Shown: piece by piece, positions 1,785 through 62,844 of the stretch
Position numbering within the stretch: the stretch's first letter is position 1
Layout: each line of letters opens with the position of its first letter
Assembly: GCA_964595725.1 (NCBI GenBank)
Contig: CAZQRQ010000007.1
Span: 6,039-70,038, forward strand
DNA length: 64,000 nt
Reading direction: 5' to 3'
From: an uncultured Rikenellaceae bacterium
GTDB taxonomy: Bacteria; Bacteroidota; Bacteroidia; Bacteroidales; VadinHA17
Program-made: the position numbers and the translations under genes
The notes under the pieces: generated by a model
The model's input: only the letters and a program-made list of their open reading frames with translations
What the model was told of the DNA's origin: nothing
Database searches by the model: none

Positions 1785-1831
1785 AGATCAGGCAATTTAG
1801 CATCAAGATGAACGCCAGTAATGTAAATATA

Positions 1832-2917: not shown

Positions 2918-2923
2918 AGGCTC

Positions 2924-6821: not shown

Positions 6822-6840
6822 GTTAAGATTATTATGTAGT

Positions 6841-7557: not shown

Positions 7558-7648
7558 TGCCTTTGCTCTTGAGGTTTGATTATCAAATATAGTAATTTAT
7601 TATACTTATAGACGTACTTAACAATATCCATGCAATTTTGTTTTACCA

Positions 7649-8092: not shown

Positions 8093-8104
8093 AGAGAGTC
8101 AGGG

Positions 8105-9391: not shown

Positions 9392-9601
9392 TATTATAAA
9401 GATTAAGCCCTAAATCTATGAAAATTAGCTGTCGGGATAATGATATATGATACTTCAGATATATTTTTATGATTAATTGACACTATTGTTTAAAAATGGT
9501 TAAGCAAAAAGGTTAATGATACTTAAAAAAATGGATGATTATTTCTGCTTTAAAAAAAAATTATAATCTTGCGTTTCTTAACCTAAAAAGGGTAATCTAT
9601 C

Positions 9602-11353: not shown

Positions 11354-11372
11354 AAACTGCTAAATATAAGCA

Positions 11373-12458: not shown

Positions 12459-13129
12459 AATACCGGGAATAAAATCCCAAAATCAATTGTAGTGCTGTTA
12501 TGTCCGCAATTAGGGAATTGAAAGTCGAGATTTGAAACGTGCCTTATACCCGGTCTTATCTCAAATACCAGGCGATCCATCTTATACTGAAAACCAAAAC
12601 CAAAAATATCAGAGAAAGCAAATCCCTTTGCAAGTCTTTCTGTTTCTTTATTTGTTATCATAGGTCCTGAACTCCCCAGGATGAAAAAGTTCATCCTTTC
12701 ACAGAGGCTTATCCGGACCTGCAGACCAAGGTTCAGAACATATTCCGTTATTGGTTTTTTTGTGGTATATAATTGCCTCAGTTCAAGATAATCCGGTCCA
12801 TATTCCGGTTGCACAAAATACTCGTTAAGAAGCTGGTGTTTTGCTGTGAATATCGAAGGTTACGCTACCAGGGCCAGTGTAACTTTCCCTTTTCTGATAG
12901 TGTAGTTTATAAGAAGCTTGACGTTCCTCGTATTATACGAGTAGTCTTTATTTCAGAAGGGAAAGATCTGTTGACTTCCTGTGCCACAGCTTAAACCGAT
13001 CATAGTCCGTCTCTCCTTCTCCTGGCATTCGGTAGCTTGAAGAAATACTACGCACAGGAGCAGGGATGATAATATCCTGAGAATAAGTCGGCTTCTTTTT
13101 TGTAGCTTTTTCTTATTGTGCAGGATCAT
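12452..13129 (-). pseudogene. Acyloxyacyl hydrolase / PagL-like outer-membrane protein pseudogene (two in-frame stops)
   Basis: A single minus-strand frame runs from ATG comp(13127-13129) to the stop at 12452. It is interrupted by TGA at comp(12953-12955) and TAA at comp(12860-12862). The N-terminus is signal-like (LILRILSSLLLCVVFLQA). The C-terminus IRHVSNLDFQFPNCGHNSTTIDFGILF resembles the PagL H-x-S-N / N-x-G-x-N end. Confidence 0.5.
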
Positions 13130-13215
13130 TTACATGAAAAGAATTATACTCAAATATAATTAAGTAAATTAAACCAGCACCATGTTTGGCCGTGTTAGTG
13201 TGAGTACGAGACTTG

Positions 13216-13289
13216 TGGAGATAAGGGGAATCGAACCCCTGACCTTGTGACTGCCAGTCACACGCTCTAGCCAACTGAGCTATATCCCC
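13216..13289 (-). tRNA. tRNA-Ala (anticodon GGC)
   Basis: The reverse complement folds as a cloverleaf: GGGGATA-TA-GCTC-AGTTGGCTA-GAGC-G-TGTGA-CTGGCAG-TCACA-AGGTC-AGGGG-TTCGATT-CCCCT-TATCTCC-A. The G3:U70 Ala identity pair is present and CCA is not encoded. Confidence 0.9.
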
Positions 13290-13555
13290 GTTCGACTTTG
13301 CTGCCCGGCAAATTTATAAAAAAAATTAATCCATATTGAAATATTACTGTCAGGACACATTTTTGTAGATTTGTGACTGACTTTTACTCAAACGACAGTG
13401 TCATTATTAAATAAACAGATTTGTTGTATGTCGCAACAATTAAAACTTGTTGAAGTGATTTTGAATTCTGGCATTATAATTGAAACTATTTAAGGATTAA
13501 ACCGTTTTACAGGCTGAAAAGTATTTTTACCAGCAAAAAGAGTCACAGGGGAATT

Positions 13556-14350
13556 ATGAAGATTTTAAAGGAGAGGGAGAATTTTAACGAGATCATCTTT
13601 GAGAACAGGAACAAGGAGTATGGTGCTTATTTTCTGAGAAAGAAGTATAACGGTTATGTTACGAGGGGCTTGTTGATCGCAGTGGTTATTGGTTCTTTAA
13701 TAGTCGGGATTCCTTTCCTTGTTGTTAAAAACAAGTCTGAAGAAATGAGGGTCGGTTCCAGGGGAAGAGTCGTCCAGCTCAGGATGGATAAACTCGAACC
13801 ACCCGAAGAGCAGATAATTATACCTCCTGCTGCACCACCCCCTCCGCCTGCAGCACAGGAAGTAGTAAAATATGTGGCGCCTGTCGTGGTAGATACTGTC
13901 TTACCTGCAGAAAAACTGGTTCCGATTGTAGATGAAGTACTGGCATCACCGGAAACTGAAACCGAGGAAATAGCGGTATTTTCAGATTCAGGGCAGGATG
14001 AGCTATTCGGGGATAACATCGGTGAAGGAGGCGATGAGCCTTTTGTGCTTGTTGAGGTGCCTCCATCTTTCAGAGGTGGTGATCTGGATAATTTCCGGGC
14101 ATGGATACAAAAACGGGTGATTTACCCCCAGGCTGCCCAGGAAAACGGCGTACAGGGAAAAGTATTTCTGACCTTTATTGTGGAACGCGATGGCTCAGTC
14201 TCGAATGTTAATGTACTCAAGAGTGTTGATAAATTGCTGGATGACGAGGCGAAGAGGGCAATAGAATCTTCTCCAAAATGGAGCCCCGGTCTTCAGCGTG
14301 GGCGACCGGTACGGGTTCGATTCTCCATTTATCTTAATTTTGCTCTTTGA
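13556..14350 (+). CDS. tonB: Energy transducer TonB family protein
   Basis: 264 aa with an N-terminal anchor and a Pro-rich spacer (IIIPPAAPPPPPAAQE). The C-terminal TonB domain reads PPSFRGGDLDNFRAWIQKRVIYPQAAQENGVQGKVFLTFIVERDGSVSNV. Confidence 0.85.
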   Translation: MKILKERENFNEIIFENRNKEYGAYFLRKKYNGYVTRGLLIAVVIGSLIVGIPFLVVKNKSEEMRVGSRGRVVQLRMDKLEPPEEQIIIPPAAPPPPPAAQEVVKYVAPVVVDTVLPAEKLVPIVDEVLASPETETEEIAVFSDSGQDELFGDNIGEGGDEPFVLVEVPPSFRGGDLDNFRAWIQKRVIYPQAAQENGVQGKVFLTFIVERDGSVSNVNVLKSVDKLLDDEAKRAIESSPKWSPGLQRGRPVRVRFSIYLNFAL

Positions 14351-14436
14351 CCGGATTATTTTACTTTAGATTGAACCTGATTTTTTTAATTGAATGATTT
14401 ATTTAACTTTAGTCGCAGTAACTAAAACCAGGAAAT

Positions 14437-15588
14437 ATGAAAAAAGTTATACCCTTCATTTTTATTCTGGCAATCATAATGGCGGGCTGCGGATCTTCCA
14501 AGAAGCAACTCGAGAGAGGCAATTATGATGCTGCAATAGACAGGGCGGTAAAACAGCTTCGCAGAGACCCAAATGATTCGAAGCAGATGTCAACCCTGAT
14601 GAATGCTTACAAAGTAGCAAAGGACCAGGATGAGGAAAGAGTAAGATTCCTGAAAATGGAAAACAGGCCTAACAGCTGGGATGAGATATACCAGGTCTAC
14701 CAGAGGCTTTATGACAGACAGAACCTGGTAAGGACAATACCGACAGCCAATATACAGTATGTGGATTACATGCCTGACCTGGTTGCTGCCAAGAGAAAAG
14801 CCGCAGATTTTTACTACGCGCATGGCATGGAACTTATGAATAGTAACAACAAAGAATCTTACCGCCAGGCCTATGCGGAGTTCATTCGAGCCAAGCAGTA
14901 TGTGGGTGATTATGAAGGAATTGACGACAAGATAATGGAAGCCAGATATCTTGGGATGAGCAGAGTGTTTGTGTCAATACAAAATAAGTCGATGCTCAGG
15001 TTTCCGAAAGAATTCGAGGACGACCTTCTCACCCTTGACCTTCCTATGCTTAATTCAGAATGGGTTGAATATCATACAGCAAATCTCGACCAGAACACAC
15101 AATTCGACTATTTTGTAAATATAAATATCAATAATATTGCAGTGAGTGATGACCAGACTACGGAAAGGGATTCGGTAATAAAGCGTGATATTGAGGATGG
15201 ATTTGAATATGTTCTCGACAATAACGGGAATGTTATGAAAGATACCCTGGGGAATGATGTCAAGATAAAGAAGTATAAGACTGTCCAGTGTGCACTCATT
15301 GAAACAATACAAAGAAAGGCCTGCAGGATAGACGGAGATGTGGAAGTAATACAGATGAATCCGAACAAAGTACTGAAAAAGGACCCGATCGGGGCAGAAT
15401 CAAATTTTGAAAACATTTCAGCCCGTGCCCTAGGAGATATACAGGCACTTACACCTCAGCAGCTTGAAAGGACAAGATCAGAGGCTGTGCCATTTCCAGC
15501 CGATATAGATATGGTGATAAGGTGTTCTGAAACCCTTAAGCTTGCTATAAGGGGAGCTATGCTCAATAACAGAAGATTTATCCTGTAG
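14437..15588 (+). CDS. Lipoprotein of unknown function
   Basis: 383 aa with lipobox FILAIIMAGCGSS. I recognise no other motif. Confidence 0.6.
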   Translation: MKKVIPFIFILAIIMAGCGSSKKQLERGNYDAAIDRAVKQLRRDPNDSKQMSTLMNAYKVAKDQDEERVRFLKMENRPNSWDEIYQVYQRLYDRQNLVRTIPTANIQYVDYMPDLVAAKRKAADFYYAHGMELMNSNNKESYRQAYAEFIRAKQYVGDYEGIDDKIMEARYLGMSRVFVSIQNKSMLRFPKEFEDDLLTLDLPMLNSEWVEYHTANLDQNTQFDYFVNININNIAVSDDQTTERDSVIKRDIEDGFEYVLDNNGNVMKDTLGNDVKIKKYKTVQCALIETIQRKACRIDGDVEVIQMNPNKVLKKDPIGAESNFENISARALGDIQALTPQQLERTRSEAVPFPADIDMVIRCSETLKLAIRGAMLNNRRFIL

Positions 15589-15615
15589 GGAAACAACATA
15601 AATATTTTTTATTGA

Positions 15616-15655
15616 ATATGCCGCAAATACCTAATTTTGCGGCATATATTTTTTG
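15616..15655 (+). terminator. Rho-independent terminator after the lipoprotein gene
   Basis: Perfect 12-bp stem: ATATGCCGCAAA (15616-15627) pairs with TTTGCGGCATAT (15636-15647). The loop is 8 nt and ATTTTTTG follows. Confidence 0.65.
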
Positions 15656-15669
15656 TTCGCATTAAAAAT

Positions 15670-16890
15670 ATGACCGAGACGGCAGAAATAACTGAGAAGG
15701 CAATACTTGTGGGGATCGTAAATCCTGGTCAGGATGAGAAGGAGGTGGATGATTACCTTGATGAACTCTCTTTTCTTACCGAAACTGCGGGAGGGGTGCC
15801 CCTGAAGAGATTCAGGCAGAAGCTGGATGTACCAAACCCGAGAACATTCGTGGGAGCAGGGAAGATAGTAGAGATAGCATCATACGTGGCGTCAAATAAA
15901 GTGGATATCGCAATATTTGACGATGAACTTTCACCAAGCCAGTTAAGAAATATAGAGAAACTGCTTGGGTGCAGGATACTCGACAGGACAAACCTGATAC
16001 TGGATATATTTGCCAGGCGTGCCAGGACTTCTTATGCCAGGACACAGGTCGAACTGGCTCAGTACCAGTATCTCCTTCCACGACTGACAAGGATGTGGAC
16101 TCACCTGGAACGGCAAAGAGGCGGGATAGGACTGAGAGGCCCGGGTGAGACGGAGATTGAAACCGACAGGAGAATTATAAGGGATAAGATTTCGAGGCTA
16201 AAATCCCGGCTTGAAAAAATTGATGTGCAGATGGCCATCCAGCGAAAAAACCGCGGAAAGCTGGTGCGTGTTTCACTTGTCGGCTATACCAATGTCGGTA
16301 AATCGACTATTATGAACCTGATCAGCAAATCGGACCTATTTGCAGAAAACAAACTGTTTGCCACCCTGGACACAACCGTAAGAAAGGTTGTTATAGGCAA
16401 CCTGCCATTCTTGCTTTCCGACACGGTCGGATTTATTAGAAAACTGCCGCATAACCTTATAGAATCATTTAAATCAACTCTTGATGAGGTGCGCGAATCA
16501 GATCTCCTGCTGCATGTGGTCGACATTTCCCACCCTGGCTTTGAAGAACAGATAAGAATTGTCGATGAGACTCTTCACGAACTAAAATCGTCAGGCAAGC
16601 CATCTGTCATTATATTTAATAAGATTGATGCTTTCAGGTACCGGGCAAAGGATGAATTTGACCTTACTCCGGCAACAAGGGAAAATTATTCACTTGAAGA
16701 TCTTAAAAGGATGTGGATTGCCGGCAACAAACACTCGGAAACAGTGTTTATCTCGGCAAAGACGGGGGAAAATATTGAAGAGCTGAGGCGTATTCTTTAC
16801 GATGAAGTGAAAAAGATCCACATCACGCGATATCCATATAATAATTTCCTGTACGATTCAGATATTTCAGGCAATAATAACTCCGTGTAA
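15670..16890 (+). CDS. hflX: GTPase HflX
   Basis: G1 is GYTNVGKSTIMN, G3 is DTVGFIRKLPHNLIESFKSTLDE, and HflX N-domain motifs are present. ATG 15670 (MTETAEI...) is preferred over the track start 15637, which lies inside the upstream terminator hairpin. Confidence 0.9.
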   Translation: MTETAEITEKAILVGIVNPGQDEKEVDDYLDELSFLTETAGGVPLKRFRQKLDVPNPRTFVGAGKIVEIASYVASNKVDIAIFDDELSPSQLRNIEKLLGCRILDRTNLILDIFARRARTSYARTQVELAQYQYLLPRLTRMWTHLERQRGGIGLRGPGETEIETDRRIIRDKISRLKSRLEKIDVQMAIQRKNRGKLVRVSLVGYTNVGKSTIMNLISKSDLFAENKLFATLDTTVRKVVIGNLPFLLSDTVGFIRKLPHNLIESFKSTLDEVRESDLLLHVVDISHPGFEEQIRIVDETLHELKSSGKPSVIIFNKIDAFRYRAKDEFDLTPATRENYSLEDLKRMWIAGNKHSETVFISAKTGENIEELRRILYDEVKKIHITRYPYNNFLYDSDISGNNNSV

Positions 16891-51628: not shown

Positions 51629-52750
51629 ATGAAAAGAAAAGGTTTTCTTTCAATTATTTTTGTTTTTCCTGCCATGATTGCCTGCCAGGTGATGGCACAA
51701 AATTCTGAACCAGTTTTTAAAGAGGTGCTTGGAAGTCAAAATGACAAGGAAGTATATCTCTATACTCTTACAAACAAAGCAGGCAACACTTTGAAGCTGA
51801 CAAACTATGGAGCAAGGATTGTTGGTATAGAAGTGCCGGACAAGGATGGCGTCAAGGCTAATATTACTACCGGTACCGACAGGCTCGAATCAATTGTAAG
51901 AGATGCTTTCGGCGGAGCTGTTATAGGCAGGTACGCCAACAGGATAGCGAATGGAAAATTTACTCTCGACGGTAAAGAGTATGATCTGCCAATTAACAAT
52001 AAGCCGAACACGCTGCACGGTGGCAGGAACGGGTGGTATACAAAGGTGTGGGATGCAGAAATCACAGGTGGCAGGAAACCGGCAATTAAATTCACTTATC
52101 TAAGTCCTGATATGGAGGAAGGATTTCCCGGAACGGTTACCATTGAAGCGACTTATACATGGACAGACAAAAACGAAATTATTATCGAGTATGCTGCAGC
52201 AACTGATAAGAAGACAGTTATAAATGTTACGAATCATGCCTATTTCAACCTGCACGGTGCCGGGAACGGATATATTTTCGATCATATTCTAACTCTCAAT
52301 GCCCAGGCTTATACACCGGTTGATGCAACTTTGATCCCTACAGGGGAGATTAGGCTGGTGGAAGGGACACCATTTGATTTTACTTCTCCTCATACCATGG
52401 GTGAAAGGATAGGGGAGACCTACGACGGATCAGTTCTCAACGGATATGATCATAATTTTGTGCTCGATAACAAAGGGAAGGTGGATGCCACGGTTTATGA
52501 TCCGGTAAGCGGACGTTTTATGGAGGTAATTACCGACCAGCCCGGGATGCAGTTTTATTCAGGCAGCGGCATGATGTGGAAAAGGGCTCAGGAGTCGGGC
52601 AACATTCCTGCAAATACCCGTTCTTCGTTTGCATTGGAAACTCAGCATTTCCCCGATAGCCCCAACCATCCAGGTTTCCCTTCAACAGTATTAAACCCGG
52701 GAGAACAATTCAAATCGAGAACCATTTACAGGTTCTCTGTAAAAAAATAG
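51629..52750 (+). CDS. galM: Aldose 1-epimerase (galactose mutarotase), secreted
   Basis: 373 aa. Motifs are GRYANRIANGKFTLDGKEY, NTLHGG, NHAYFNL and ETQHFPDSPN. Confidence 0.85.
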   Translation: MKRKGFLSIIFVFPAMIACQVMAQNSEPVFKEVLGSQNDKEVYLYTLTNKAGNTLKLTNYGARIVGIEVPDKDGVKANITTGTDRLESIVRDAFGGAVIGRYANRIANGKFTLDGKEYDLPINNKPNTLHGGRNGWYTKVWDAEITGGRKPAIKFTYLSPDMEEGFPGTVTIEATYTWTDKNEIIIEYAAATDKKTVINVTNHAYFNLHGAGNGYIFDHILTLNAQAYTPVDATLIPTGEIRLVEGTPFDFTSPHTMGERIGETYDGSVLNGYDHNFVLDNKGKVDATVYDPVSGRFMEVITDQPGMQFYSGSGMMWKRAQESGNIPANTRSSFALETQHFPDSPNHPGFPSTVLNPGEQFKSRTIYRFSVKK

Positions 52751-52803
52751 TTTTATAAATATAGGGTGAAAATTAATTATTGAAGCCATTGGTACAAGAC
52801 ATT

Positions 52804-52900
52804 TTATTTACCTAATTGAGGGTCATAAAACCTTGCACCATAATCGTACCAGTAGGAGTTGTTACTGCTGACTGATAATATGTTATGCTGATTTTGGAAC
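52804..52900 (-). pseudogene. Rhs/YD core-junction stub (junction 1), truncated right after the junction
   Basis: The minus-strand frame reads ...[32 protein letters not shown] with the stop at comp(52804-52806). No toxin domain follows. Confidence 0.7.
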
Positions 52901-53096
52901 AATTTTCTTGGCGATATTATGGTAATTTGAAGCTTTGAAAACAGATCTATCAACTTTATCAATATGAAAATTAATGTTTTTGTGGGATTTTGAATACTTA
53001 ACTATTAAAATAACTGAGGCATTCCATGTTGGTATTTCTCATGATGATCTTATAGCTGAGATTTTTGTTATTCTTTAAAGTAGGAGTATCTTTGTA
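52821..53096. repeat. Copy A of a ~276-bp repeat (junction stub plus promoter region); copy B is at 57191-57466
   Basis: It aligns collinearly by eye with copy B. Most positions are identical, with scattered substitutions and small indels. Confidence 0.8.
53087..53094 (+). promoter_or_regulatory. Candidate Bacteroidota -7 box TATCTTTG (TAnnTTTG) for the ParE-type TA operon
   Basis: It lies at the conserved end of repeat copy A. A TTTG sits at 53064-53067, 19 nt upstream, and the antitoxin ATG is 43 nt downstream. Copy B has the same spacing. Confidence 0.5.
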
Positions 53097-53137
53097 CAAG
53101 AGGACAAGCTTGTGGATCTCGTTTAGTTCAGCTGAAT

Positions 53138-53314
53138 ATGAAAACAAAAAATATAAAATCAAAAGAAAAAGAAAATTGGGCGTTACCAGGCAATCCTATT
53201 TCCCATAATGAATTCAAGAGTGGGATTAAAAAAGCAGAGGAAGGTCCATTTTATACTGTGGAGGAGTCAAAAAACATGCTCGAAGAATGGAGGAAGAAAA
53301 AAAGCTCCGTGTAA
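53138..53314 (+). CDS. Putative antitoxin (58 aa, below the ORF-track size cutoff)
   Basis: My translation is MKTKNIKSKEKENWALPGNPISHNEFKSGIKKAEEGPFYTVEESKNMLEEWRKKKSSV*. It sits immediately upstream of the ParE-like ORF and overlaps it by 28 nt. Confidence 0.5.
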   Translation: MKTKNIKSKEKENWALPGNPISHNEFKSGIKKAEEGPFYTVEESKNMLEEWRKKKSSV

Positions 53315-53622
53315 AAGTATCCAAATCATTTATCATTGATCTTGATAGCATTTTTCAATATGGCGTAGAGACCTTTGGCCTCCGGCAGACTCAACTTTAT
53401 GAGAATGAGATCTGGAAGCTGGTGGACGGACTTTCAAGCAATTGGCAACTCTTTTCTGAGTGCCGTCATCTGTCAACAAAGTCGAAGATGTACAGATGGA
53501 TTATACTGGAATCTCACCTTATCATTTATCGTATCACAGTCAAAGAAATACAGGTACTTCGGATACTGCATTCTAACCGCAGCATAACAAAAATAAAGGC
53601 TTCGAGAGGGGTAAAACCATAG
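53287..53622 (+). CDS. Type II toxin, RelE/ParE superfamily (ParE-like)
   Basis: 111 aa. Segments LRVKVSKSFIIDLDSIFQYG and YRWIILESHLIIYRITVKEIQVLRILHSNRS are typical of the ParE_toxin family. Confidence 0.7.
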   Translation: MEEEKKLRVKVSKSFIIDLDSIFQYGVETFGLRQTQLYENEIWKLVDGLSSNWQLFSECRHLSTKSKMYRWIILESHLIIYRITVKEIQVLRILHSNRSITKIKASRGVKP

Positions 53623-53735
53623 AATAAAGATTCATATGAGAACAAGAGGATCCATTCATGCAAGGCTGGGAAAGAACCAATTTATCGATAAATTCGGCAA
53701 CCGGATTGTTCACGCTCAAAAAAAACAATAAAATA

Positions 53736-53765
53736 AAAACCCGGCGTCGAACCGGGTTTCTTGTT
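53736..53765. terminator. Hairpin terminator between the convergent ParE gene and immunity/toxin cassette 2
   Basis: AAAACCCGG-CGTCGA-ACCGGGTTT followed by CTTGTT. A-rich sequence upstream could make it bidirectional. Confidence 0.55.
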
Positions 53766-53804
53766 ACGTTACCTATTGGAAAAATCACTAATTCAAAACA
53801 AAAC

Positions 53805-54008
53805 CTAATTCTTTGATCTAATATTATCCAAAGAGTCTTTGTAAGCTTTGATCAACAGTTTGGTCGAGTCACGATAATAAGAATATTCTTTATATATTTC
53901 TTCAGTGTAGATTATTTGCCTTTTGTTTTCAATGTTTTTAAGGAAGACAAATATTAATAACACTATAATTATCAGAGTAATAAATACAGATTTAATTATC
54001 TTTTTCAT
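53805..54008 (-). CDS. Candidate immunity protein for cassette 2 (N-terminal TM anchor)
   Basis: 67 aa beginning MKKIIKSVFITLIIIVLLIFVFL... It starts 5 nt after the stop of the toxin ORF on the same strand. Confidence 0.45.
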   Translation of the reverse strand: MKKIIKSVFITLIIIVLLIFVFLKNIENKRQIIYTEEIYKEYSYYRDSTKLLIKAYKDSLDNIRSKN

Positions 54009-54013
54009 TCCAT

Positions 54014-54769
54014 TTATTTTCGTTTATTATCATTTTGATTTTTCAGAATAAGTTGAAGCGTTCCTTCTTGGAGTAATTCGCTTGAAGTAGTAAATGGTCC
54101 GTGTATTTGACTTCCAATAGTCATAAAGAAATTTAATGGGGCACTAAGGAGTGCATTTAGAATCCGCATCGGTTCGCTATATGCAAATCTTTCCCCAGCT
54201 GTATTTAAAACAGGGTGAGATCTAATTACATCATACCTGTTTTTACTAAATTCAGGTGCATGTGCGAAAACCATATATTCCCACTTTTTACTATAGAACT
54301 TCTTATCTTCAAGTTCTGCATTATTCACAATAATGTCTGCAGCTTCTTGTTTAAACACGTTGACGTCAGTCATAGCATTGCCTTCATAGTCTAAAAATGT
54401 ACTTACAGTTGGGGTTTCACCTATATTTTTACCTCCCGCAGAAGTGTTGTTCTTCCCGTAATTCTTCAGTACTACCTTGCTTGCTCTTTTTTCGTTGCCT
54501 TTATGTTTATAAATGGTTTTATCTCCATCATCATATACAGCAACAATTTTCCCCTTCTTACTTGTATGAGTTGACATTCCATTTGCATCGATGAAAATTA
54601 TTGGATTATCAATCGTATAATTATAAGGAGACCATCTATAATACTTCTCCGCCATCGGATCCACCACATGCCATCTCCCGATCTGCGGATCATAAAACCT
54701 TGCGCCGTAATCGTACCAGTAACCAGAGTTACTTTTGATTGATAGTATGTTACCCTGTCTTTGAAGCAA
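54014..54769 (-). CDS. Orphan Rhs-junction C-terminal toxin module (cassette 2), toxin domain of unknown type
   Basis: The peptide reads ...[59 protein letters not shown] followed by about 185 aa of unique sequence. The frame opens only 8 codons upstream, after TAA at comp(54794-54796). There is no ATG before the junction. Confidence 0.7.
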
Positions 54770-54915
54770 GTTTTTAACGGTTTTTGGGCTACTTTACCTT
54801 CCGAAATTGCTATTTATACTCTATTCAGGTATGAAAATAAGGAAATAATGACGATTTATTGGTGATTTTACAATGGGATTTAATAGTCAGTAAGATTATA
54901 TGGGATTTGTAGTGA

Positions 54916-55461
54916 TTATTTATCCTTTCGGGAAGGCTTGAATCCTTTTACCTGGACAGGCTTTTTGGTGTCGTGCTTCTCTATCAGCTCATCGAGGTAG
55001 CTGAAGACAAGTTCTATGTTTTTGTCCTGGTTGGTGAGTTTCTTTTTAATTTCTTCAATTTCAAGTCGTATACTCATGTTATCCATTAGGATCTCCCGCA
55101 CCTTGGTGAATACTCGCATGATCTGGATATTAACCTTTATGGCTCTCTCACTGTTCAACACCCCTGATAACATTGCTACACCTTGCTCGGTAAACGCATA
55201 TGGCAGTTTTCGACGACCACCCCAGCTTGATGTTCCAGTTTGGAATATCAAGACTTCGAACTCTGCCTTTGTCAACTGGAACATAAAATCTTCCGGGAAG
55301 CGGTCTAGGTTACGCTTTACCTGTTCATTTAATCTGCGGGTTTCAACATCATATAGTTCTGCCAGGTCTTCATCAAGCATCACTTTTTTATCTCTTATGA
55401 GGTAGATTTTGCTTGTTATAATTTCATCAGGTACAGCCAGAAGATTACTTCTTTTTGTCAT
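54916..55461 (-). CDS. ORF6N (KilA-N-like) DNA-binding domain protein
   Basis: 181 aa. Motifs are IRDKKVMLDEDLAELYDVETRRLNEQVKRNLDRFPEDFMFQLT and SSWGGRRKLPYAFTEQGVAMLSGVLNSERAIKVNIQIMRVF. Confidence 0.8.
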   Translation of the reverse strand: MTKRSNLLAVPDEIITSKIYLIRDKKVMLDEDLAELYDVETRRLNEQVKRNLDRFPEDFMFQLTKAEFEVLIFQTGTSSWGGRRKLPYAFTEQGVAMLSGVLNSERAIKVNIQIMRVFTKVREILMDNMSIRLEIEEIKKKLTNQDKNIELVFSYLDELIEKHDTKKPVQVKGFKPSRKDK

Positions 55462-55504
55462 TATGAGCTTTGTGTTATGGTTTTGTAAAGTTACTTATTT
55501 AAAC

Positions 55505-55529
55505 TTGATGTCGCATTTTGCGATATCAA
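55505..55529. promoter_or_regulatory. Palindrome 1 upstream of the ORF6N gene (operator candidate)
   Basis: TTGATGTCGCA-TTT-TGCGATATCAA, located 44-68 nt upstream of the ORF6N start codon. Confidence 0.45.
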
Positions 55530-55583
55530 AATTGTATTTAACGGATTGTTGGCATATCGGATTTTACAATTTATGATTTCTTA

Positions 55584-55610
55584 CTTGATATCGCAAAGTG
55601 CGATATCAAG
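55584..55610. promoter_or_regulatory. Palindrome 2 upstream of the ORF6N gene (operator candidate)
   Basis: CTTGATATCGCA-AAG-TGCGATATCAAG is a perfect 12-bp inverted repeat with the same half-site as palindrome 1, 79 bp away. Confidence 0.45.
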
Positions 55611-55743
55611 AATGGTAATGCCATATTAACCACTCTATTATATATTTATCGATGGCGCTGATATATTGGAATCCTTCTAATCCTTCAGGCTGATGGCACG
55701 GTATTGTCCCTCTTGCTGTCTACACTGTAGTCAAACCCCGCTA

Positions 55744-55896
55744 TTACCAGGATTGTTGCAAAACACTTATTGCGTTATTGCAACAGATTTTTACACTTTT
55801 GCATTTAGGATTCCGTATTCTAGATACTCCAGCGAGTGGATTTACAGTAGTAAATCGTCCTATTTGCGGACTATAAGATCTCGCTCCATAATTGTA
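55744..55896 (-). pseudogene. Diverged Rhs-junction remnant (junction 5)
   Basis: Minus strand reads *YNYGARSYSPQIGRFTTVNPLAGVSRIRNPKCKSVKICCNNAISVLQQSW*. It is bounded by TAA at comp(55897-55899) and the stop at comp(55744-55746). Confidence 0.5.
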
Positions 55897-55991
55897 TTAA
55901 TACAAAATCAAAGAACTTATAAATGTAAGACGTTATCATTAATACTAAAATCCAGAAATCCTATTCTAATTTTGTGTGAATGTTTAACAAT

Positions 55992-56566
55992 CTAATAAGG
56001 TATCCAGAAATAGAATTCTAAAATTACTTTATCATATACAACAATTCTAAATTCCCCATTATAAGGACCATACTTATCCTTGATAAGTACTGAATATATT
56101 GAGTACTTTTCCCCAGAAGGTGTATAATTTTTAAATTTAATTTTATAGTGTTTCCTAATGAAATTATTTATCTTATCCCCAACTTTAATCTCAGGAAATA
56201 TTCCAGTTAGACTATTGTCTTGACATGAAAAAGCTTGAACCTCATTATGAACACTTCAAAATATGATTTTGAGTAATATATGTACCTTGAACTATCACTT
56301 GGGATTACCTTACTATAATTACTGATTACAGAATCAGGTTTCCCATTTAGTTTATAAATTACCATTGCCTTATCTCCCAAGTGGATACCAGAGATACAAA
56401 TTCGATCAAAGTTTATGAAATCTTCTTTGTTCTTTTGACTGTAACAAAATTTACAGAAAAGTAATGAAACTACTACTCCTACAAAACAAATTGACCTTAT
56501 GCGCTTTAAGTAATACTCCAAATGTAATCTTAAACCAAATAATATATTATCCCTTTCCTTTTTCAT
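55992..56566 (-). pseudogene. Candidate immunity gene for the M23 toxin, apparently frameshifted
   Basis: The track ORF 56207-56566 (signal-like ICFVGVVVSLLFCKFCYSQ) ends at TAA. A second frame stays open for about 76 codons to comp(55992-55994) with no Met or plausible start (SVHNEVQAFSCQDNSLTGIFPEIKVGDK...FYFWIPY*). An A5/T5 run at 56227-56231 lies in the frame-overlap window. Confidence 0.45.
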
Positions 56567-57167
56567 ACTCAGATTCTTTATTTACTTCTTCTTTTTGTAT
56601 AGATTCTGGTTGTATAGGATTTCCATCAGAATCAAACTTAGTATCCAAATAGTCTTCTGGGTTAGTTTCTGTGGCTTCATCCCAGTTATCAGACTCTCCC
56701 TCTCTCGTAATTATATGTACATGCTCTCGATCTTCTGGTAAACCTTTGGCATTACCAGTCGTACCGGAAACACCAATAATATCTCCTTCATTGACTAACC
56801 CACTCACTGTCGGGATATCTTGTAAATGTGCATACAAGGTAAATAAGTCATTACCAGACTCAAGCTTTGATCTAATAATTAAATAATTTCCTAGTTTGCC
56901 TTCTGTATTTGCTGAGTACACTGTACCACCCTTGATGCTCATTAGATTGGTTCCTTTTAGAGCCTTTATGTCCAATCCATTATGATGCCTGCCTCGTGCG
57001 TCTCCCCATCTTCCTCCAGCTATATTATTGTTCTCTGTTGGACATATCCGGGGGTTCTTTACAGGATCACCAGAGACAAGACCAGCTATATCAATAAATA
57101 GGATGGGATTGTTAAATGTATATGCGTACGGGCTATAATTATTCATTTTTTCAGCTAATGGATCCAC
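56547..57167 (-). CDS. Orphan Rhs-junction C-terminal toxin module (cassette 3) with an M23 (LytM-type) peptidase domain
   Basis: The junction reads [58 protein letters not shown], with TGA at comp(57219-57221) where other copies have the Trp codon. M23 motifs are [20 protein letters not shown] and EHVHI. Confidence 0.75.
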
Positions 57168-57190
57168 CGAATTCCACCTCCCGATCTGCG

Positions 57191-57466
57191 GGTCATAGAA
57201 TCTTGCTCCGTAATCATATCAGTGACTAGGATGACCGTTGACTGATAATATGTTATACTGATTTTGGAACAATTTTCCTGGCTATATTAAGGTTATTTGA
57301 AGCTTTATAAACAGGTTTATCAACTTATCAGTATGAAAATTAGTGCTTTTTCTGGGATTTTTAATACTTATCTATTGAAATATCTGAGTAATTACTTGTT
57401 GGAATATCTTCTAATGATCCTAGGTTTAAAATTATTGTTATTCTATAAAGTAGGAGTATCTTTGTA
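57191..57466. repeat. Copy B of the ~276-bp repeat (junction stub plus promoter region)
   Basis: See copy A (52821-53096). Confidence 0.8.
57457..57464 (+). promoter_or_regulatory. Candidate Bacteroidota -7 box TATCTTTG for the RelE-type TA operon
   Basis: The octamer and context (AAAGTAGGAGTATCTTTGTA) are identical to copy A. The antitoxin ATG is 43 nt downstream. Confidence 0.5.
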
Positions 57467-57507
57467 TTGCCTGGGAAACTAGTACTTGGAGTAATGAAAG
57501 AACTAAA

Positions 57508-57702
57508 ATGGAAGAGAACTATGTGATTGATAAAAGTGGCCGCAAAATAGCCGTTCAGGTTCCAATTAAGACCTATAAAAAACTAGTAGCGGATTCTGAA
57601 GAACTGGATGAAATAAAGGAATACCGTAAGGCCAAAACCCATAAGAGCGATCCTATACCCTTTAAACAGGCTTTCAACGAGATTGAAGAAGCTACAAAAT
57701 GA
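57508..57702 (+). CDS. Type II antitoxin (partner of the RelE-like toxin)
   Basis: 64 aa, acidic C-terminus. It overlaps the toxin start by 4 nt (ATGA). Confidence 0.65.
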   Translation: MEENYVIDKSGRKIAVQVPIKTYKKLVADSEELDEIKEYRKAKTHKSDPIPFKQAFNEIEEATK

Positions 57703-57953
57703 GGTATACCATTTTTATTGAACGTTATGCCCAAAAGCAAATCTTAAGGCTTGACAGAAAAGTAATACCTATTATTAAATCAGCCATTGCAGGTCTTGCT
57801 GATAACCCCAGACCACAGGGATATAAAAAACTCAAAGGTGAAGATGCTTACCGTATCCGGGTAGGTGATTACCGGGTTATCTATGAGATTGATGATGACA
57901 GGATAATCATTGTTGTAGTATCTGTTGGACACAGGAAAGACATTTATAAATAA
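57699..57953 (+). CDS. relE: Type II toxin, RelE/ParE family (RelE/StbE-like mRNA interferase)
   Basis: 84 aa with the motif YRIRVGDYRVIYEIDDDRIIIVVVSVGHRKDIY. Confidence 0.8.
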   Translation: MRYTIFIERYAQKQILRLDRKVIPIIKSAIAGLADNPRPQGYKKLKGEDAYRIRVGDYRVIYEIDDDRIIIVVVSVGHRKDIYK

Positions 57954-57954
57954 A

Positions 57955-57985
57955 AAGCCCGGCTTTTAAACCGGGTTTTATGTTT
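57955..57985. terminator. Hairpin terminator between the convergent RelE gene and immunity/toxin cassette 4
   Basis: AAAGCCCGG-CTTTTAAA-CCGGGTTTTATGTTT, the same CCCGG/CCGGG stem type as at 53736. Confidence 0.55.
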
Positions 57986-58009
57986 CTGTTCATTTTATTC
58001 CAAGGTTGG

Positions 58010-58201
58010 CTAAAATACTATCAAGACTACAACTCCCAATATGATTACAACTGTAGCCACTCCAATAATGTAGTTCTCCGTGTCATAGGTTCCGCCCAAG
58101 ACCGCATTGAAGTTCCCTTCGACTTCATCTTGTAAACGTGTTTTGCAACCTTTTAATAACCATCGGATAAAACCACCTATCCATCTTGCTGTTTCTGGCA
58201 T
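58010..58201 (-). CDS. Candidate immunity protein for cassette 4 (C-terminal TM anchor)
   Basis: 63 aa ending ...NYIIGVATVVIILGVVVLIVF. It starts 5 nt after the toxin stop on the same strand. Confidence 0.45.
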   Translation of the reverse strand: MPETARWIGGFIRWLLKGCKTRLQDEVEGNFNAVLGGTYDTENYIIGVATVVIILGVVVLIVF

Positions 58202-58206
58202 AACTT

Positions 58207-59043
58207 TTACTTTTCTAATTCCTTCTTAGTTGCGGTTCCAATATTTAACACATTTCTGACTATATCTAATTCTTTCAGACCTTGCTGATTAACTTTATTC
58301 GTTTGAAATAGTTTTCCTGCTCTTTGCTGCCATTTCATGCCAGTTGGCAATCCTTTTGTGGCAGTGATCCCCGGGGTATTGTTAACAAACTGATTAAATC
58401 CCTGTAGTCCTTCATTGGATGTTTTAACTACCTGCCCTGTCGTGGTTAATCCTCCTGATATTAATGCCGGAACTACGTCAATAAAAGCATCCATCTTTTT
58501 GTCCGCATTTGCTGGAGTTCCACCCAGGGATTTTCCAGTTAATAAAGTTACAGGTGAATTAACTATTGAATAACCAATAATAGCTGCAACTTTTAAAGAC
58601 CCTTCTCCAAACGAACCTGATGGAGAGTCAAGCCAATTTTTAAAAGCAGATAATGTACCTGATTTATTAATTTCTCCTGAACCAGTACTATTTATCAATT
58701 CTGGCCCAAAGTAAGATGTTTTGGCAAGGTTAAATGTTTCCTTATTATCCGTGAATTTCATCCATAGCTTACTGTCATTTACAATCAGGTCAGCAGTTTC
58801 ATTATCAAACCATTTATATTCACCAGATACGCTTTGATATCTATCAACTCCCATTCCATCAGGGTCAATAAATCTCATAGGATTATCTACAGTGTAGTTA
58901 TATGGCGACCACCTTCTGTACTTTTCAGCTAATGGATCCACCGCATTCCACCTCCCTATCTGTGGATCGTAAAACCTTGCACCGTAATCGTACCAACTAA
59001 AAGGGAAATTTTCAGATGAGATAATATCTTCCTTTATTTGCAT
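58207..59043 (-). CDS. Orphan Rhs-junction C-terminal toxin module (cassette 4), toxin domain of unknown type
   Basis: The peptide is [64 protein letters not shown] followed by about 210 aa of unique Gly/Ser/Thr-rich sequence. Its ATG is immediately preceded by an in-frame TAA at comp(59044-59046). Confidence 0.7.
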
Positions 59044-59131
59044 TTAACCCAAAGTATAAGTCCACTTTAGAAATTGATTACTCCAAGACATTTTTGAATG
59101 ATCTGTGAGGAGAACAAAACTTATGAAACAA

Positions 59132-59368
59132 CTAAAGTAAAGCAGATACAGAAATATCTTCGTCTATACTCTTCCAGTGAATCCCAACACCATTACCAAT
59201 AAGTCTCCAATCCTTAAGCTGGTCTTCGCTGGCTTTTCTTAGTCTTGGGAACCATAATAATGGAACACCGATTTCTCGCCCATCCTGTAATTGAACATAG
59301 AGCATGTCCTTTGTGAACCACACTTTTGAAGCGAGGGCATTTACTTGTTTATTGGCTAAAGTGCTCAT
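59132..59368 (-). CDS. DUF2442 domain protein
   Basis: 78 aa with the motif LYVQLQDGREIGVPLLWFPRLRKASEDQLKDWRLIGNGVGIHWKSIDEDISVSALL. Confidence 0.75.
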   Translation of the reverse strand: MSTLANKQVNALASKVWFTKDMLYVQLQDGREIGVPLLWFPRLRKASEDQLKDWRLIGNGVGIHWKSIDEDISVSALL

Positions 59369-59422
59369 TCCATTTATCTCTTATTAACACCTCATTCTTC
59401 TTAGTAATTTATTTAATATCAA

Positions 59423-61747
59423 TTATTTCCTAAAGGTGGCCTCAGTACTGGTTTTCTTTGAATATCCCTTTATTTCACCCGGCTTCCAATCTCTTGCCAT
59501 CTGGATGTCGTTATCGACTTTTTCAGTTAGTAAAGGGATGTTCACATAGCCAACCCTGTTATAGATAGCAGGTTTATATTTTGAATCATACAATTCTGCA
59601 TATTTTATCCAGTAAGTTTTTGCCCGTGTAAGATGGTCAATTGCTTCTTCTTTGTCCTGCTCCAGCCCGTAAAAATTGTAAAGTGCCAGGGAGCATGCGC
59701 CCCTGATCTTTTCTGCATAGTAGAATCCTATGGCAGCAAACGCCTCGATATCACCAAGTGTCTGACCAAGTTCAGTTTCCGTTCCCTGTTTCGATGGAAG
59801 AAGTTTTTGCAGACCGATCATTGAGAGCCTGGCATATTTTGAAATTGTATCTGCAACTGCAGTGGGAGGTAAAAGGGTGGCGGACTTATTTTCACCATAG
59901 TATTGTGCCCACTGGGTGATGTTCTGAATATTGCTCCCTGCAACCGGATCGACTTCCATGAAATCCCTGACGGTATAAAAACCCTTATACCAGGAGGGAT
60001 TACTGTAGCAGGCTTCGGGGAACCATTTAAGATCGATGTCACCCCATACCAGCCTTGTTGTCCATGGAAAAATCATTGAGGCATCTGACCAGGTCTTCAT
60101 AAGGATATCGGGTGAAACTGAGGGAAAGTGAGAAGCCAGGGTCTGCCTGAAAAGCTCATCCTGCAAACCAGGGTCATAGCTCAGCCGTCCCCAGAGCATG
60201 AAGGAATACCACTGCTTCTGTATTATCAGTGATCCGGAAAGGGTTTGTCCCCGTGTCAGGAAATCTTTCCCCCAGCAGTATCCGTCAGGACCCATATAAA
60301 ATCCTGATATCTTATCAACGGACGGGATATTCATAATATATTCCCTGGCATATCGGGGATTACCCCAGCGGAAACTATATACATCATCATTTCTTACGGT
60401 CAGCCATGTCTTCTGTCCGGCAGGAAGAGCTTCAAATGCAGTATTGCTGAAAGGCGGATTGGTTATGGAATACATGTGGGCGATGGAATACTTTATACTC
60501 AGGTCCATAGTTCCGGGGTAATCCCTAAACTCGTTCAGGATCTCGGTCATTCCGGTCTGGTGAAACCTGTGTATGAGCCTGAATTTTCTGTCCGGCTGTT
60601 TCCGAAGAGCATCTCTTATTCCCTCACCATAAGTTTTCCACAGCCATTGTTCATTGGTATACTTTTCGTTTCTGCCACCCATGTTTTCTCCAGCTGTGAT
60701 ACCAAAACCGGCCAGAAGAGGATAGGTAAGTACCATCTCCCTCATAGATGCCCTGAAATATGCTATTGTTGTGTCATTGCTGCGGTTGCTTGTTATCCCG
60801 TACTTTCCCTGTTCCCCGTATGTGAAAATGTTCCATGTGAAGAAATAGACTTCTATGCCTCGGTCATTTGCATATTCCATTACCTTTCTCCAGAATCCTA
60901 TTTTTTCCTTGATTGTTATTTTCTTAACAATCTCATGATTATCAAGCAATTCTGGATTCAGGTTCCCGGTGCCGGTTGTTGAATAAGTATTGTCAATATC
61001 TGCTGTAGTTTTCCAGACATCATCCAGTGCGACTTCGGGGTATTCTGGAACCTTTACCAGTGACGGGAAAGGATTCAGGCTCCATAAAGTAATTACATTA
61101 TATCGGTTCCTGGCCATCTCATCAAATTGCTGTTTCCAGAAATCCATATCCCAGACAACGGGAATATTCTGCTGGAAAGCATCAGACAGGTCTGAATAAC
61201 TGGGTGTCCTCAGATCGAGCGGGATGTTGAATTTGATGCCCCTTCGTTCGAGATATGGCTTGTTATCAGACTCAGGGAGAGCATCTATTGTGCCGTTAGT
61301 GATTGCCTCTGCAATATCGAGACAACCATACATTAAACCTGTTTTATCACTGCTCAGGATCCAAAATTCGAGGTTATTTCCTTCTTTTCTCTTCCTGATA
61401 GAATAACATTGCCAGCCTGTATACTCCGGTGGCCTTAATCCCATTTTTTTCAGGGCAGCTAAAGACTGATCTTTTTCAGCGGGAATATTAACAATGATAC
61501 AATTTGAACTGGCTGCCTGCCTGGTACGGCCCCTCATTATTTCTATGCCTCTTTCATCTGACGCCTTTTCCAATTCGCTGATCCCAAAGAGTATTTGCTG
61601 GTCTTTGGATTCTGATAAAAGAATGATTTTATGGTAATTGGAAATTTTCTGTTCCTGGTAGCTAATGGCAGATGAAGAAACACTTTGAGCCGAAAGACTG
61701 TAAACAGCAAACAGCAAGATGACCGGTATATGATATTTAATTTTCAT
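59423..61747 (-). CDS. Large secreted protein of unknown function, possibly glycoside-hydrolase-like
   Basis: The internal ATG at comp 61747 gives a signal peptide (MKIKYHIPVILLFAVYSLSAQS). The N-terminal SSDKTGLMYGCLDIAEAI and ERRGIKFN... pattern is like ORF 47429. The track start 61789 would overlap the upstream DUF362 gene. Confidence 0.35.
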   Translation of the reverse strand: MKIKYHIPVILLFAVYSLSAQSVSSSAISYQEQKISNYHKIILLSESKDQQILFGISELEKASDERGIEIMRGRTRQAASSNCIIVNIPAEKDQSLAALKKMGLRPPEYTGWQCYSIRKRKEGNNLEFWILSSDKTGLMYGCLDIAEAITNGTIDALPESDNKPYLERRGIKFNIPLDLRTPSYSDLSDAFQQNIPVVWDMDFWKQQFDEMARNRYNVITLWSLNPFPSLVKVPEYPEVALDDVWKTTADIDNTYSTTGTGNLNPELLDNHEIVKKITIKEKIGFWRKVMEYANDRGIEVYFFTWNIFTYGEQGKYGITSNRSNDTTIAYFRASMREMVLTYPLLAGFGITAGENMGGRNEKYTNEQWLWKTYGEGIRDALRKQPDRKFRLIHRFHQTGMTEILNEFRDYPGTMDLSIKYSIAHMYSITNPPFSNTAFEALPAGQKTWLTVRNDDVYSFRWGNPRYAREYIMNIPSVDKISGFYMGPDGYCWGKDFLTRGQTLSGSLIIQKQWYSFMLWGRLSYDPGLQDELFRQTLASHFPSVSPDILMKTWSDASMIFPWTTRLVWGDIDLKWFPEACYSNPSWYKGFYTVRDFMEVDPVAGSNIQNITQWAQYYGENKSATLLPPTAVADTISKYARLSMIGLQKLLPSKQGTETELGQTLGDIEAFAAIGFYYAEKIRGACSLALYNFYGLEQDKEEAIDHLTRAKTYWIKYAELYDSKYKPAIYNRVGYVNIPLLTEKVDNDIQMARDWKPGEIKGYSKKTSTEATFRK

Positions 61748-61761
61748 TTGTTGTTCCGGTG

Positions 61762-62844
61762 TTATTGCATTTTTACCGGGTTCTTCCATTCAAGCTGTTC
61801 ATCAATATTTTCGTGCAGCTTATATTTAATTACATGATCATCGGGATTGGCATTTCCTATAATATCTATTTTTGCGCGGTCGGTATTTCCAAATCCTGCG
61901 GCTCCCAGGTAGTTCAGATACCCGACATTCTCCAGGGGTATGCCCATCAGCCTGGCACACATGCTGTCAACGGCCACTACATCTTCGCCTGCAAGGGCTA
62001 TCCTGTGATCGACAGGTGTTCCGCTAACAGGGCCGTTACCTTCCATCCCTTCAACCCCATCGATTATTGTAAAATCCGGTCGCAATTGCTGACCAACCAG
62101 AAATATATTGTAATGTAAAAATCTCTCTCCTCCGGAATGCATCCTGCTTTTGTAATGCTTACCACTGCTCCTGTCGTCAGATATAACCAGTGGTGCTCCC
62201 ATGACTATATTCTTGACCCCTGCCGTCATCACCACACGATTGTGGGTTTTTAGCCGGGATAATGACATGATGTAGTTATTTGGATCAACATAGGTTTTTG
62301 CAACCGGTATCTCCTCCTGGTGAAGGTTGGGATCTATAATGAAGAAAGGTGTCCCATTATCTTTATTAAGGTCTACGAATTTAATATTATAGTCTTTCTG
62401 CAAGTCGAGATACCCGTAATTTTTAAATCCTTCAGCGGAGTCAACCACAGAGCTTGATTCGGCAATGATGATCTGCTTTTTGTAGATAGGCTTCATGTAT
62501 TCGAGCAGGGCACGTATTGCATCGACATGAGTTGCACAAAGAGGTGTACTGGTTGCTACCATATTAACCTTAATGATCAGCTGTTTATCTGTCAATCCTT
62601 TTCTGATCTCTGCTTCAAAAGGTTTAATTACCTCGTAAAGCATCTGCTGCCTTTCGGTTCCGGTAGTGAAGGCAACACTGCTATTACCTCTTGCTAATGG
62701 TATTTTAGGTTCAGGTTTAATGTCTGCAGGCTCTGTAGCCAAAATATCAGAAAATCCGCCTGCCAGCATACCGGCAGCACCAAGTCCAAGCATTTTTAAT
62801 GCGTTGCGTCTCCCAACCGCGAGTTGTTTACCTGATGTTTTCAT
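61762..62844 (-). CDS. DUF362 domain-containing protein with a TAT signal
   Basis: 360 aa. The leader is GRRNALKMLGLGAAGMLAGG. The DUF362 core reads IIKVNMV, LSRLKTHN, IIDGVEGMEGNGPVSGTPVD and VAVDSMCARLMGI. Confidence 0.7.
   Translation of the reverse strand: MKTSGKQLAVGRRNALKMLGLGAAGMLAGGFSDILATEPADIKPEPKIPLARGNSSVAFTTGTERQQMLYEVIKPFEAEIRKGLTDKQLIIKVNMVATSTPLCATHVDAIRALLEYMKPIYKKQIIIAESSSVVDSAEGFKNYGYLDLQKDYNIKFVDLNKDNGTPFFIIDPNLHQEEIPVAKTYVDPNNYIMSLSRLKTHNRVVMTAGVKNIVMGAPLVISDDRSSGKHYKSRMHSGGERFLHYNIFLVGQQLRPDFTIIDGVEGMEGNGPVSGTPVDHRIALAGEDVVAVDSMCARLMGIPLENVGYLNYLGAAGFGNTDRAKIDIIGNANPDDHVIKYKLHENIDEQLEWKNPVKMQ

Follow-up and report, generated by a model that had tools for sequence, protein, structure and literature searches.

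Orphan toxin tips of Rhs proteins, their candidate immunity genes and two type II toxin–antitoxin (TA) operons are interleaved in an island at positions 52751-59422 of a 64-kb stretch of contig CAZQRQ010000007.1 from an uncultured Rikenellaceae bacterium. This whole stretch is referred to as the window in the following, and the searches for rhs genes, recombinases and further repeat copies reported below apply to its 64 kb. The picture obtained is that of a modular mosaic, in which a common frame of Rhs junction, promoter-bearing spacer and hairpin carries different genes in two parallel units, and in which a block of about 0.9 kb that includes the TA operon is the inherited unit. Loci from other genomes and metagenome contigs (labelled L001 and L019-L043) were used for comparison, and most of the contexts that could be judged combine a TA operon with an Rhs junction nearby. 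We consider it rather probable that the TA operons are selfish addiction modules which travel with such islands and anchor them incidentally.

Two Parallel Units of Rhs Cassettes and Toxin–Antitoxin Operons

An earlier sequence-only reading of this DNA had proposed that the island resolves into two units of the same order and orientation, and every feature on which this proposal was built was found in its place. The units are organised around Rhs junctions, which were located by tblastn with a junction peptide across the window and with the TIGR03696 profile. Five junctions were detected, all in direct orientation on the minus strand, and no junction or other Rhs match was present in the window outside the island. 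The N-termini of the cassettes correspond to the end of the RHS repeat-associated core (YDxxGRxxxxDPxG[LM]), and toxins 1 and 2 reach 44.6 and 47.3 bits, respectively, with the end of the TIGR03696 Rhs_assc_core profile (cutoff 32.5 bits). Junctions 2 (54718-54575), 4 (57218-57078) and 5 (58995-58852) form the heads of toxin 1, of a tip with a peptidase M23 domain and of toxin 2, respectively. Junction 1 (52795-52906; tblastn, 52851; open reading frame (ORF) 52804-52962) is a truncated core-end stub at the left edge of the island that terminates in translation at YDPQLGK* and is not followed by a toxin tip. At junction 3 (55896-55831), all that is left is a degenerate sequence (YNYGARSYSPQIGRFTTVNPLA) with stop codons in its translation, located in a non-coding stretch of about 590 bp (55620-56206) between the M23 immunity gene and the ORF6N gene; this junction had been missed by the sequence-only reading, which counted four junctions instead of five. 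A full-length rhs gene was not found in the window, no ORF of which encodes more than 905 amino acids (aa).

Toxin 1 (54014-54769, minus strand, 251 aa) and toxin 2 (58207-59043, minus strand, 278 aa) are orphan Rhs tips that are 66% identical over residues 1-64 and unrelated in the remainder. The C-terminal domain of toxin 1 matches no known family, the tip of toxin 2 contains long hydrophobic, glycine-rich helices, and past the junction neither of the two could be matched to a sequence in Pfam, NCBIfam or PDB. An AlphaFold model of toxin 2 was of low confidence (pLDDT 56) and too poor for a fold search. Just three full-length relatives of the toxin 1 tip were found, and about 15 of the 150 best matches to the toxin 1 junction are Rhs proteins of more than 1000 aa, while the approximately 55 homologues of the toxin 2 tip all have lengths of 157-481 aa and include no full-length Rhs protein. 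Short tip-only proteins dominate the homologue lists of both the toxin 2 tip and the toxin 1 junction.

Behind every complete tip lies a small ORF (67, 63 and 119 aa) that encodes a hydrophobic helix. Putative immunity protein 1 (53805-54008, minus strand, 67 aa) is encoded 6 nt after toxin 1 and has an N-terminal transmembrane helix (hydropathy 3.08), and immunity protein 2 (58010-58201, minus strand, 63 aa) has a C-terminal one (hydropathy 3.29). Toxin 2 and immunity protein 2 are co-conserved in L043, with identities of 60% and 68%, respectively. A third cassette has an orphan Rhs tip that contains a peptidase M23 domain (56547-57221, minus strand; PF01551, 4e-15) and whose gene is overlapped at its end by that for a putative immunity protein of 119 aa with an N-terminal hydrophobic segment (56207-56566, minus strand). 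In this cassette, TGA takes the place of a Trp codon at 57221-57219, just before YDYGAR, and the ORF restarts at GTG 57167. No TA operon accompanies the M23 toxin, its 119-aa partner and the junction-3 remnant, which are located between unit 1 and unit 2.

The TA operon of unit 1 consists of a gene for a putative antitoxin of 58 aa (53138-53314, plus strand), which overlaps by 28 nt the gene for a ParE-family toxin of 111 aa (53287-53622, plus strand; PF05016 ParE_toxin, 5.8e-9, 36.9 bits; 186 homologues). An exact-sequence look-up of the ParE protein returned no record. In unit 2, a gene for a RelB-like antitoxin (57508-57702, plus strand; PF18506, 29.2 bits, cutoff 27 bits) precedes that for a RelE/ParE-family toxin (57699-57953, plus strand; PF05016, 1.6e-13, 51.4 bits; 1272 homologues). 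Both toxins thus score above the PF05016 cutoff of 23 bits and both have a small antitoxin gene immediately upstream in the same operon, as is characteristic of type II systems; pairwise BLASTP revealed no similarity between the two. The operons resemble ParDE and RelBE systems in their PF05016 toxins, in the overlapping small antitoxin gene upstream and in having their own promoter and terminator; they differ in that the putative 58-aa antitoxin of unit 1 matches no known family. A small gene directly upstream of that for ParE was also called in L027, L028, L030, L036 and L037 (58 aa), in L038 and L039 (78 aa), in L040 (57 aa) and in L041 (73 aa), and the 58-aa gene shares 92% DNA identity with L027/L037. 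A CCCGG/CCGGG hairpin is found close to the end of either operon, and each operon faces an immunity gene in convergent orientation.

A Conserved Frame with Exchanged Payloads

The frame that unites the two units is most evident in a repeat which was noted by the sequence-only reading as 276 bp long and now aligns over 283 columns with 81.6% identity (E 1e-72). Repeat A (52817-53096) comprises the junction 1 stub, a non-coding spacer and the TA promoter, and repeat B (57187-57466) comprises junction 4, spacer and promoter; a third copy is absent from the window. The spacer of about 190 bp contains stop codons in every frame. When the island was scanned with the Bacteroidetes-type consensus TTG-N19-TAnnTTTG, just two full matches were obtained, both within the repeats and both pointing away from the junction: the promoter of the ParE operon at 53064-53094 on the plus strand (TTTG, 19 nt, TATCTTTG; −7 box 53087-53094) and that of repeat B, also on the plus strand, with its −33 TTG at 57435-57437 and its −7 box (TATCTTTG) at 57457-57464. 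Both repeats end 2 nt past the −7 box, and the antitoxin start codon follows 42 nt beyond the repeat end. Transcription is predicted to start about 7 nt past 53094 and 57464. At the other end of the operons, a CCCGG/CCGGG terminator hairpin lies between the ParE gene and the gene for immunity protein 1 (53735-53761), and a bidirectional one directly after the RelE gene (57954-57979). Apart from the repeat and the hairpin, homology between the two units is confined to the junction-coding part of the toxin genes (about 145 bp); self-comparison bears out the claim that scaffolding is conserved beyond the Rhs junction itself, i.e., in spacer, promoter and hairpin.

The position at which the payload was replaced can be narrowed down. 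Left of the −7 box, repeats A and B share 80% identity in the spacer and 94% in the promoter; right of it, identity drops to 33-41%. The comparison of repeat A with the ParE relatives L027/L037 shows the opposite, with 61-67% identity left of the −7 box and 85-93% right of it. A recombination breakpoint thus lies no more than a few bases from the −7 box. A similar discordance exists at the far end of the operon. The hairpin of unit 1 is of the type found directly 3′ of the RelE stop codon in the window, in L019 and in L022 (with a longer-stemmed variant in L020), and such a hairpin is absent after the ParE gene in L027, L037, L038 and L040. The switch at the −7 box and the RelE-type hairpin behind a ParE gene both agree with the notion of a conserved scaffold with replaced payload put forward in the sequence-only reading. 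The simplest reading of these data is that one frame of junction, spacer, promoter and hairpin was duplicated or converted in this lineage and that the transcribed TA unit was swapped in one of the copies.

How much is inherited together became apparent from the ParE relatives. The homology of the window to L027 and L037 ends about 80-110 nt past the ParE stop codon, and what is kept together in the ParE block is the junction stub, the spacer, the promoter, the antitoxin gene, the ParE gene and about 100 bp beyond. L027 and L037 have their left flank and this block in common and diverge exactly inside the junction, behind which L027 contains a small ORF and L037 a PF09000 tip with a DUF7683 gene. 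The convergent neighbour of ParE is immunity protein 1 in the window, a peptidase M19 in L027, a peptidase M16 in L037 and belongs to other tips in L038 and L040. Since this neighbour changes in every ParE context, the whole super-module is not one heritable unit. The modular cassette architecture that had been proposed therefore holds as far as the mosaic is concerned, which is real; the super-module from stub to accessory gene does not stand as its unit, the co-inherited piece being only about 0.9 kb long.

Two further interpretations of the non-coding spacer were considered and rejected. A structured RNA or RNA family is not indicated, as Rfam gave no match with an E value under 0.19 and none at all within the spacer, and folding z-scores were 0.10 and 0.45. 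Nor does the spacer look like decayed Rhs core, as similarity to Rhs proteins extends upstream of the junctions for a few tens of codons at most, never into the spacer, and all frames are stopped. In the region behind the ParE gene, about 100 nt past its stop codon (53623-53732) are conserved at the DNA level with L027 and L037 and do not look coding, and a 71-aa ORF overlapping the 3′ end of the ParE gene was discarded as a gene, its N-terminal part not being conserved as protein in L027 and L037.

Recurrence of the Arrangement in Other Loci

The sequence-only reading had made its case dependent, in advance, on the arrangement being found elsewhere, and this is what we observed in L021, L022-25, L027-36, L037, L038, L040 and L043. 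In six of the eight contexts that were sampled via TA genes and could be judged, the distance from the TA operon to an Rhs junction is no more than about 2.7 kb (positive: L021, L022-25, L027-36, L037, L038 and L040/41; negative: L020 and L042); L019 is not among the eight, as its contig ends too early for the presence of a junction to be judged. The order in L021 is that of unit 2, i.e., a junction, about 275 bp, RelB-RelE and a convergent 123-aa ORF with an Rhs tip, and the tips are different ones. L021 contains four junctions in all and a gene for a XerD-like recombinase (6.7e-24) that adjoins an ORF6N gene. In L022-25, a junction remnant is convergent on the RelE gene and begins about 140 bp after it. 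L027-36 match window positions 52811-53701 with 81.7% identity over 898 bp, the stub being decayed there, and L037 matches the same block of stub, spacer, antitoxin and ParE with 80.9% identity over 928 bp; its junction runs into the PF09000 cytotoxic tip followed by DUF7683. In L038 and L040/41, ParE is convergent on Rhs-tip/immunity pairs at a distance of 0.9-2.7 kb. The ParE relative of L040/L041 follows a helix-turn-helix gene, and the element that carries it also encodes a DnaG-like primase and two tyrosine integrases. Here, ParE is separated from the convergent Rhs-tip/immunity pair by an inserted group II intron reverse transcriptase.

Sampling from the toxin side led to L043, which carries the toxin 2 homologue that is closest among those on long contigs, and here, too, a ParE operon is present alongside, unrelated to either operon of the window. 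Positions 1-16732 of this contig (ENA ERZ21831104 ctg89650c) consist of a 3967-bp unit repeated 4.2 times with 99.8% identity and with differences that are mostly indels. The unit contains a HicB-like gene and genes for an antitoxin, a 99-aa ParE, a 265-aa Rhs tip and a 63-aa immunity protein. The repeat could have arisen by concatenation of a small circle, by tandem amplification or as an artefact of long-read assembly.

Such islands also harbour other TA families, namely HigB between two junctions (L037), HepT/MNT after a junction remnant (L022) and DUF4160/DUF2442 (L027). L027 and L037 share their left flank (a gene for a 751-aa glycosyltransferase), and L037 and L042 share their right flank (peptidase M16 and methyltransferase; 79% identity). 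The contents differ: a stub and ParE in L027, HigB, the cytotoxic tip and ParE in L037 and RelBE alone in L042. Judged by these flanks, the site seems to be a hot spot in the chromosome for modules of this kind.

Island Borders and Accessory Genes

The island has a guanine and cytosine (GC) content of 35%, compared with 43-45% in either flank, which points to a foreign origin and suggests that it was acquired horizontally. Its neighbours are an aldose 1-epimerase gene on the left (51629-52750; PF01263) and an ORF for 788 aa on the right (59423-61789). Eight genes for products of 63-278 aa were called on its minus strand. Both ends of the island are truncated elements, which would indicate the erosion of a larger array.

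One of the minus-strand genes encodes an ORF6N-domain DNA-binding protein (54916-55461; PF10543, 5.5e-36). It is 78.7% identical at the DNA level, palindrome included, to L021 14856-15452, where it adjoins the XerD-like recombinase gene, and has its place at the end of such islands that bears the recombinase. Upstream of the ORF6N gene, at 55504-55529 and 55585-55610, there are two nearly perfect palindromes of 26 nt (TTGATATCGCA…TGCGATATCAA), one of which is kept in L021 (15418-15446); a role as operators is probable for them. At the right edge of the island, a DUF2442 gene (59132-59368; PF10387, 1.7e-19) forms, together with about 40 nt of the 3′ end of a DUF4160 gene, a segment (59132-59408, minus strand) that is 83% identical to L027 10063-10339; L027 retains the DUF4160 gene as well as the DUF2442 gene in intact form. 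The DUF4160 remnant (59369-59408) belongs to a gene that was cut away at the island edge and lies 15 nt from the 788-aa ORF. By comparison with L027, DUF2442 is the relic of a broken third TA-like pair (DUF4160/DUF2442). ORF6N and DUF2442 had been regarded as parallel accessory genes of the two units; with one found beside a recombinase in L021 and the other derived from a DUF4160 pair, they are not equivalent, and this part of the earlier interpretation has to be given up.

The window has a close counterpart in L001 (JGI 3300077105), a metagenome contig of 1080 bp that is 99.9% identical to positions 57390-58469. It begins inside repeat B, as an assembly is expected to break at a repeat. A DNA match was not found in the plasmid database PLSDB, and IMG/VR contained no ParE relative and RelE relatives only at 38-42% identity.

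Discussion

The sequence-only reading is supported in part. What the comparisons establish is the anatomy of the island, its breakpoints, the recurrence of the layout, the promoter and terminator motifs and the joint conservation of toxin 2 and immunity protein 2. We propose that the region is an eroded, horizontally acquired, rAID-like island of orphan Rhs tips and immunity genes, relatives of which in Bacteroidales can have a XerD-like recombinase and an ORF6N gene at their head. Type II TA operons would be habitual residents of such islands, each placed between two cassettes, where it diverges from one Rhs junction over a promoter-bearing spacer of 190-290 bp and runs convergently towards the immunity gene of the cassette before it, with a hairpin terminator in common. 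The mosaic would have been made by homologous recombination at short conserved joints, i.e., the Rhs junction, the spacer with its promoter and the terminator. Duplication or gene conversion of the frame within the lineage, followed by exchange of the TA payload in one copy, would have given rise to the two parallel units, and the toxin tips next to the junctions would have been exchanged independently. The TA operons would be active addiction modules, so that loss of their own block of about 0.9 kb, or any deletion spanning it, would be costly. Were a deletion to occur between junctions 5 and 4, junctions 2 and 1 or the two repeats, one of the TA operons would be lost with it, and the deletion would be counter-selected. 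The operons would thereby hitch-hike with cassette islands and may partly hold them, rather than serve as a dedicated anti-deletion device.

Orphan rhs toxin/immunity arrays, in which a main rhs gene is followed by displaced C-terminal tips, have reportedly been described in enterobacteria. The island resembles these arrays in its direct-repeat core-end junctions, each with an unrelated tip and a small immunity ORF, and in having its breakpoints at the junction. It differs from them in that there is no full-length parent gene in 64 kb, in that opposite-strand TA operons are interleaved between the cassettes and in that a conserved non-coding spacer with promoter is present upstream of two junctions. 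The chromosomal superintegrons of Vibrio, the arrays of which are said to be stabilised by TA cassettes, share with the island type II TA operons that have their own promoters and are dispersed in an array of exchangeable cassettes, which makes a stabilising role plausible here. The likeness is purely functional; that the TA operons may help to retain the island is suggested by the recurrence of the layout in other genomes. Neither an IntI integrase nor attC sites were encountered, the window lacking a tyrosine recombinase (tblastn with the XerD-like recombinase of L021) and repeated site-like inverted repeats between the cassettes. The joints are Rhs junctions and the promoter-bearing spacer instead of attC, and exchange would therefore occur by homologous recombination. 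A literature search yielded no report of a coupling between TA operons and Rhs junctions.

The analogy with superintegrons can be taken further, to a purpose-built cassette platform in which every super-module functions as a unit and the TA operons are favoured by selection for keeping cassettes from being lost through recombination. This idea accommodates the conserved frame with swapped payload, the position of the TA operons between direct junction repeats, such that each of the three deletions named above would take a TA operon with it, and the recurrence of the TA–Rhs geometry; we nevertheless regard it as unlikely. The convergent partner of ParE differs everywhere, with just the block of about 0.9 kb being co-inherited, and the M23 cassette and the junction-3/ORF6N segment do without a TA operon. 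TA operons also outlive the cassettes they should protect: L027 retains only a decayed stub, L020 and L042 no Rhs remnant at all, and junction 1 of the window is tipless. Moreover, the exact identity that the junction copies now share amounts to just 14-22 bp at most, which should make them poor substrates for RecA, and ORF6N and DUF2442 are of different origin. At the other extreme, a simple segmental duplication followed by drift, with TA operons and Rhs tips having come together by chance in a junkyard island, would fit the presence of just two units in the window and the general abundance of TA operons in genomic islands, but the payloads are unrelated rather than diverged copies and the breakpoints are sharp. 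With junctions flanking TA relatives in six of the eight judged contexts and a TA operon also in the context sampled from the toxin side, chance co-occurrence is untenable. The comparative loci contradict this explanation already, and we consider it extremely improbable.

A further alternative assumes that tips and TA operons were inserted as cassettes by a since-lost recombinase of the XerD family, in which case the island would be the remnant of an integron-like array of the rAID type and the 280-bp repeat a relic of the recombination site. Arrays of the rAID-1 type have a XerD-family tyrosine recombinase at their head, at least two co-oriented short genes of a GC content below 41% and conserved intergenic motifs (bioRxiv 10.1101/471110; PMC12247911). 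In line with these published features, the island contains co-oriented short genes, immunity candidates among them, at 35% GC, and the homologous array in L021 is headed by the XerD-like recombinase and ORF6N; the 3967-bp unit of TA operon, Rhs tip and immunity gene in L043 might represent an intermediate in circular form or a small replicon. On the other hand, no recombinase homologue is present in the window, the breakpoints are found where coding or promoter sequences are homologous (Rhs junction, −7 box) and not at a distinct site-like motif, and the repeat exists in two copies only, the other three junctions being without one. As to conserved intergenic motifs, this one two-copy repeat is the candidate that the island offers. 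It further departs from rAID-1 in keeping apparently intact toxin tips and not just immunity genes, and in its TA operons, which are no part of the published description. An origin as a recombinase-driven array thus strikes us as quite improbable. Equally doubtful in our view is the idea that the 0.9-kb block of TA operon, spacer and Rhs junction is a portable landing pad, in which a bare junction is kept by addiction and toxin-tip/immunity cassettes are captured and swapped by homologous recombination without full-length rhs gene or recombinase, in effect an integrase-free analogue of an integron. The 3967-bp unit of L043 could be an excised or amplified form of such a landing pad.

Several points weigh against our preferred explanation, according to which selfish addiction modules travel with the islands. 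The window contains neither a recombinase nor a full-length rhs gene. The contexts were sampled via homologues of the window's own TA genes (73-87% identity), just ten other distinct contexts were seen, and their relationships are such that recurrence may largely be traceable to one or a few ancestral linkages which spread as a block. In addition, the spacer does not appear to be a widely conserved element, because an exact 20-mer from it (CTGATTTTGGAACAATTTTC) occurs in no other genome or metagenome contig: the 6 and 11 matches in genome and metagenome scans were chance matches, none of which extended past 21-30 nt. Such exact-word scanning is insensitive at about 80% identity, and the 0.9-kb block was later recovered via protein contexts.

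Orphan toxin/immunity arrays shape warfare in dense bacterial communities and are retained although they are mostly silent. A recurrent physical coupling of addiction modules to Rhs junctions would provide a concrete and testable mechanism of retention, and the stabilisation of cassette arrays by TA operons would extend from the integrons of Vibrio to the polymorphic-toxin islands of Bacteroidales. A TA operon that diverges from an Rhs junction would, furthermore, be a practical marker for such islands in metagenomes.

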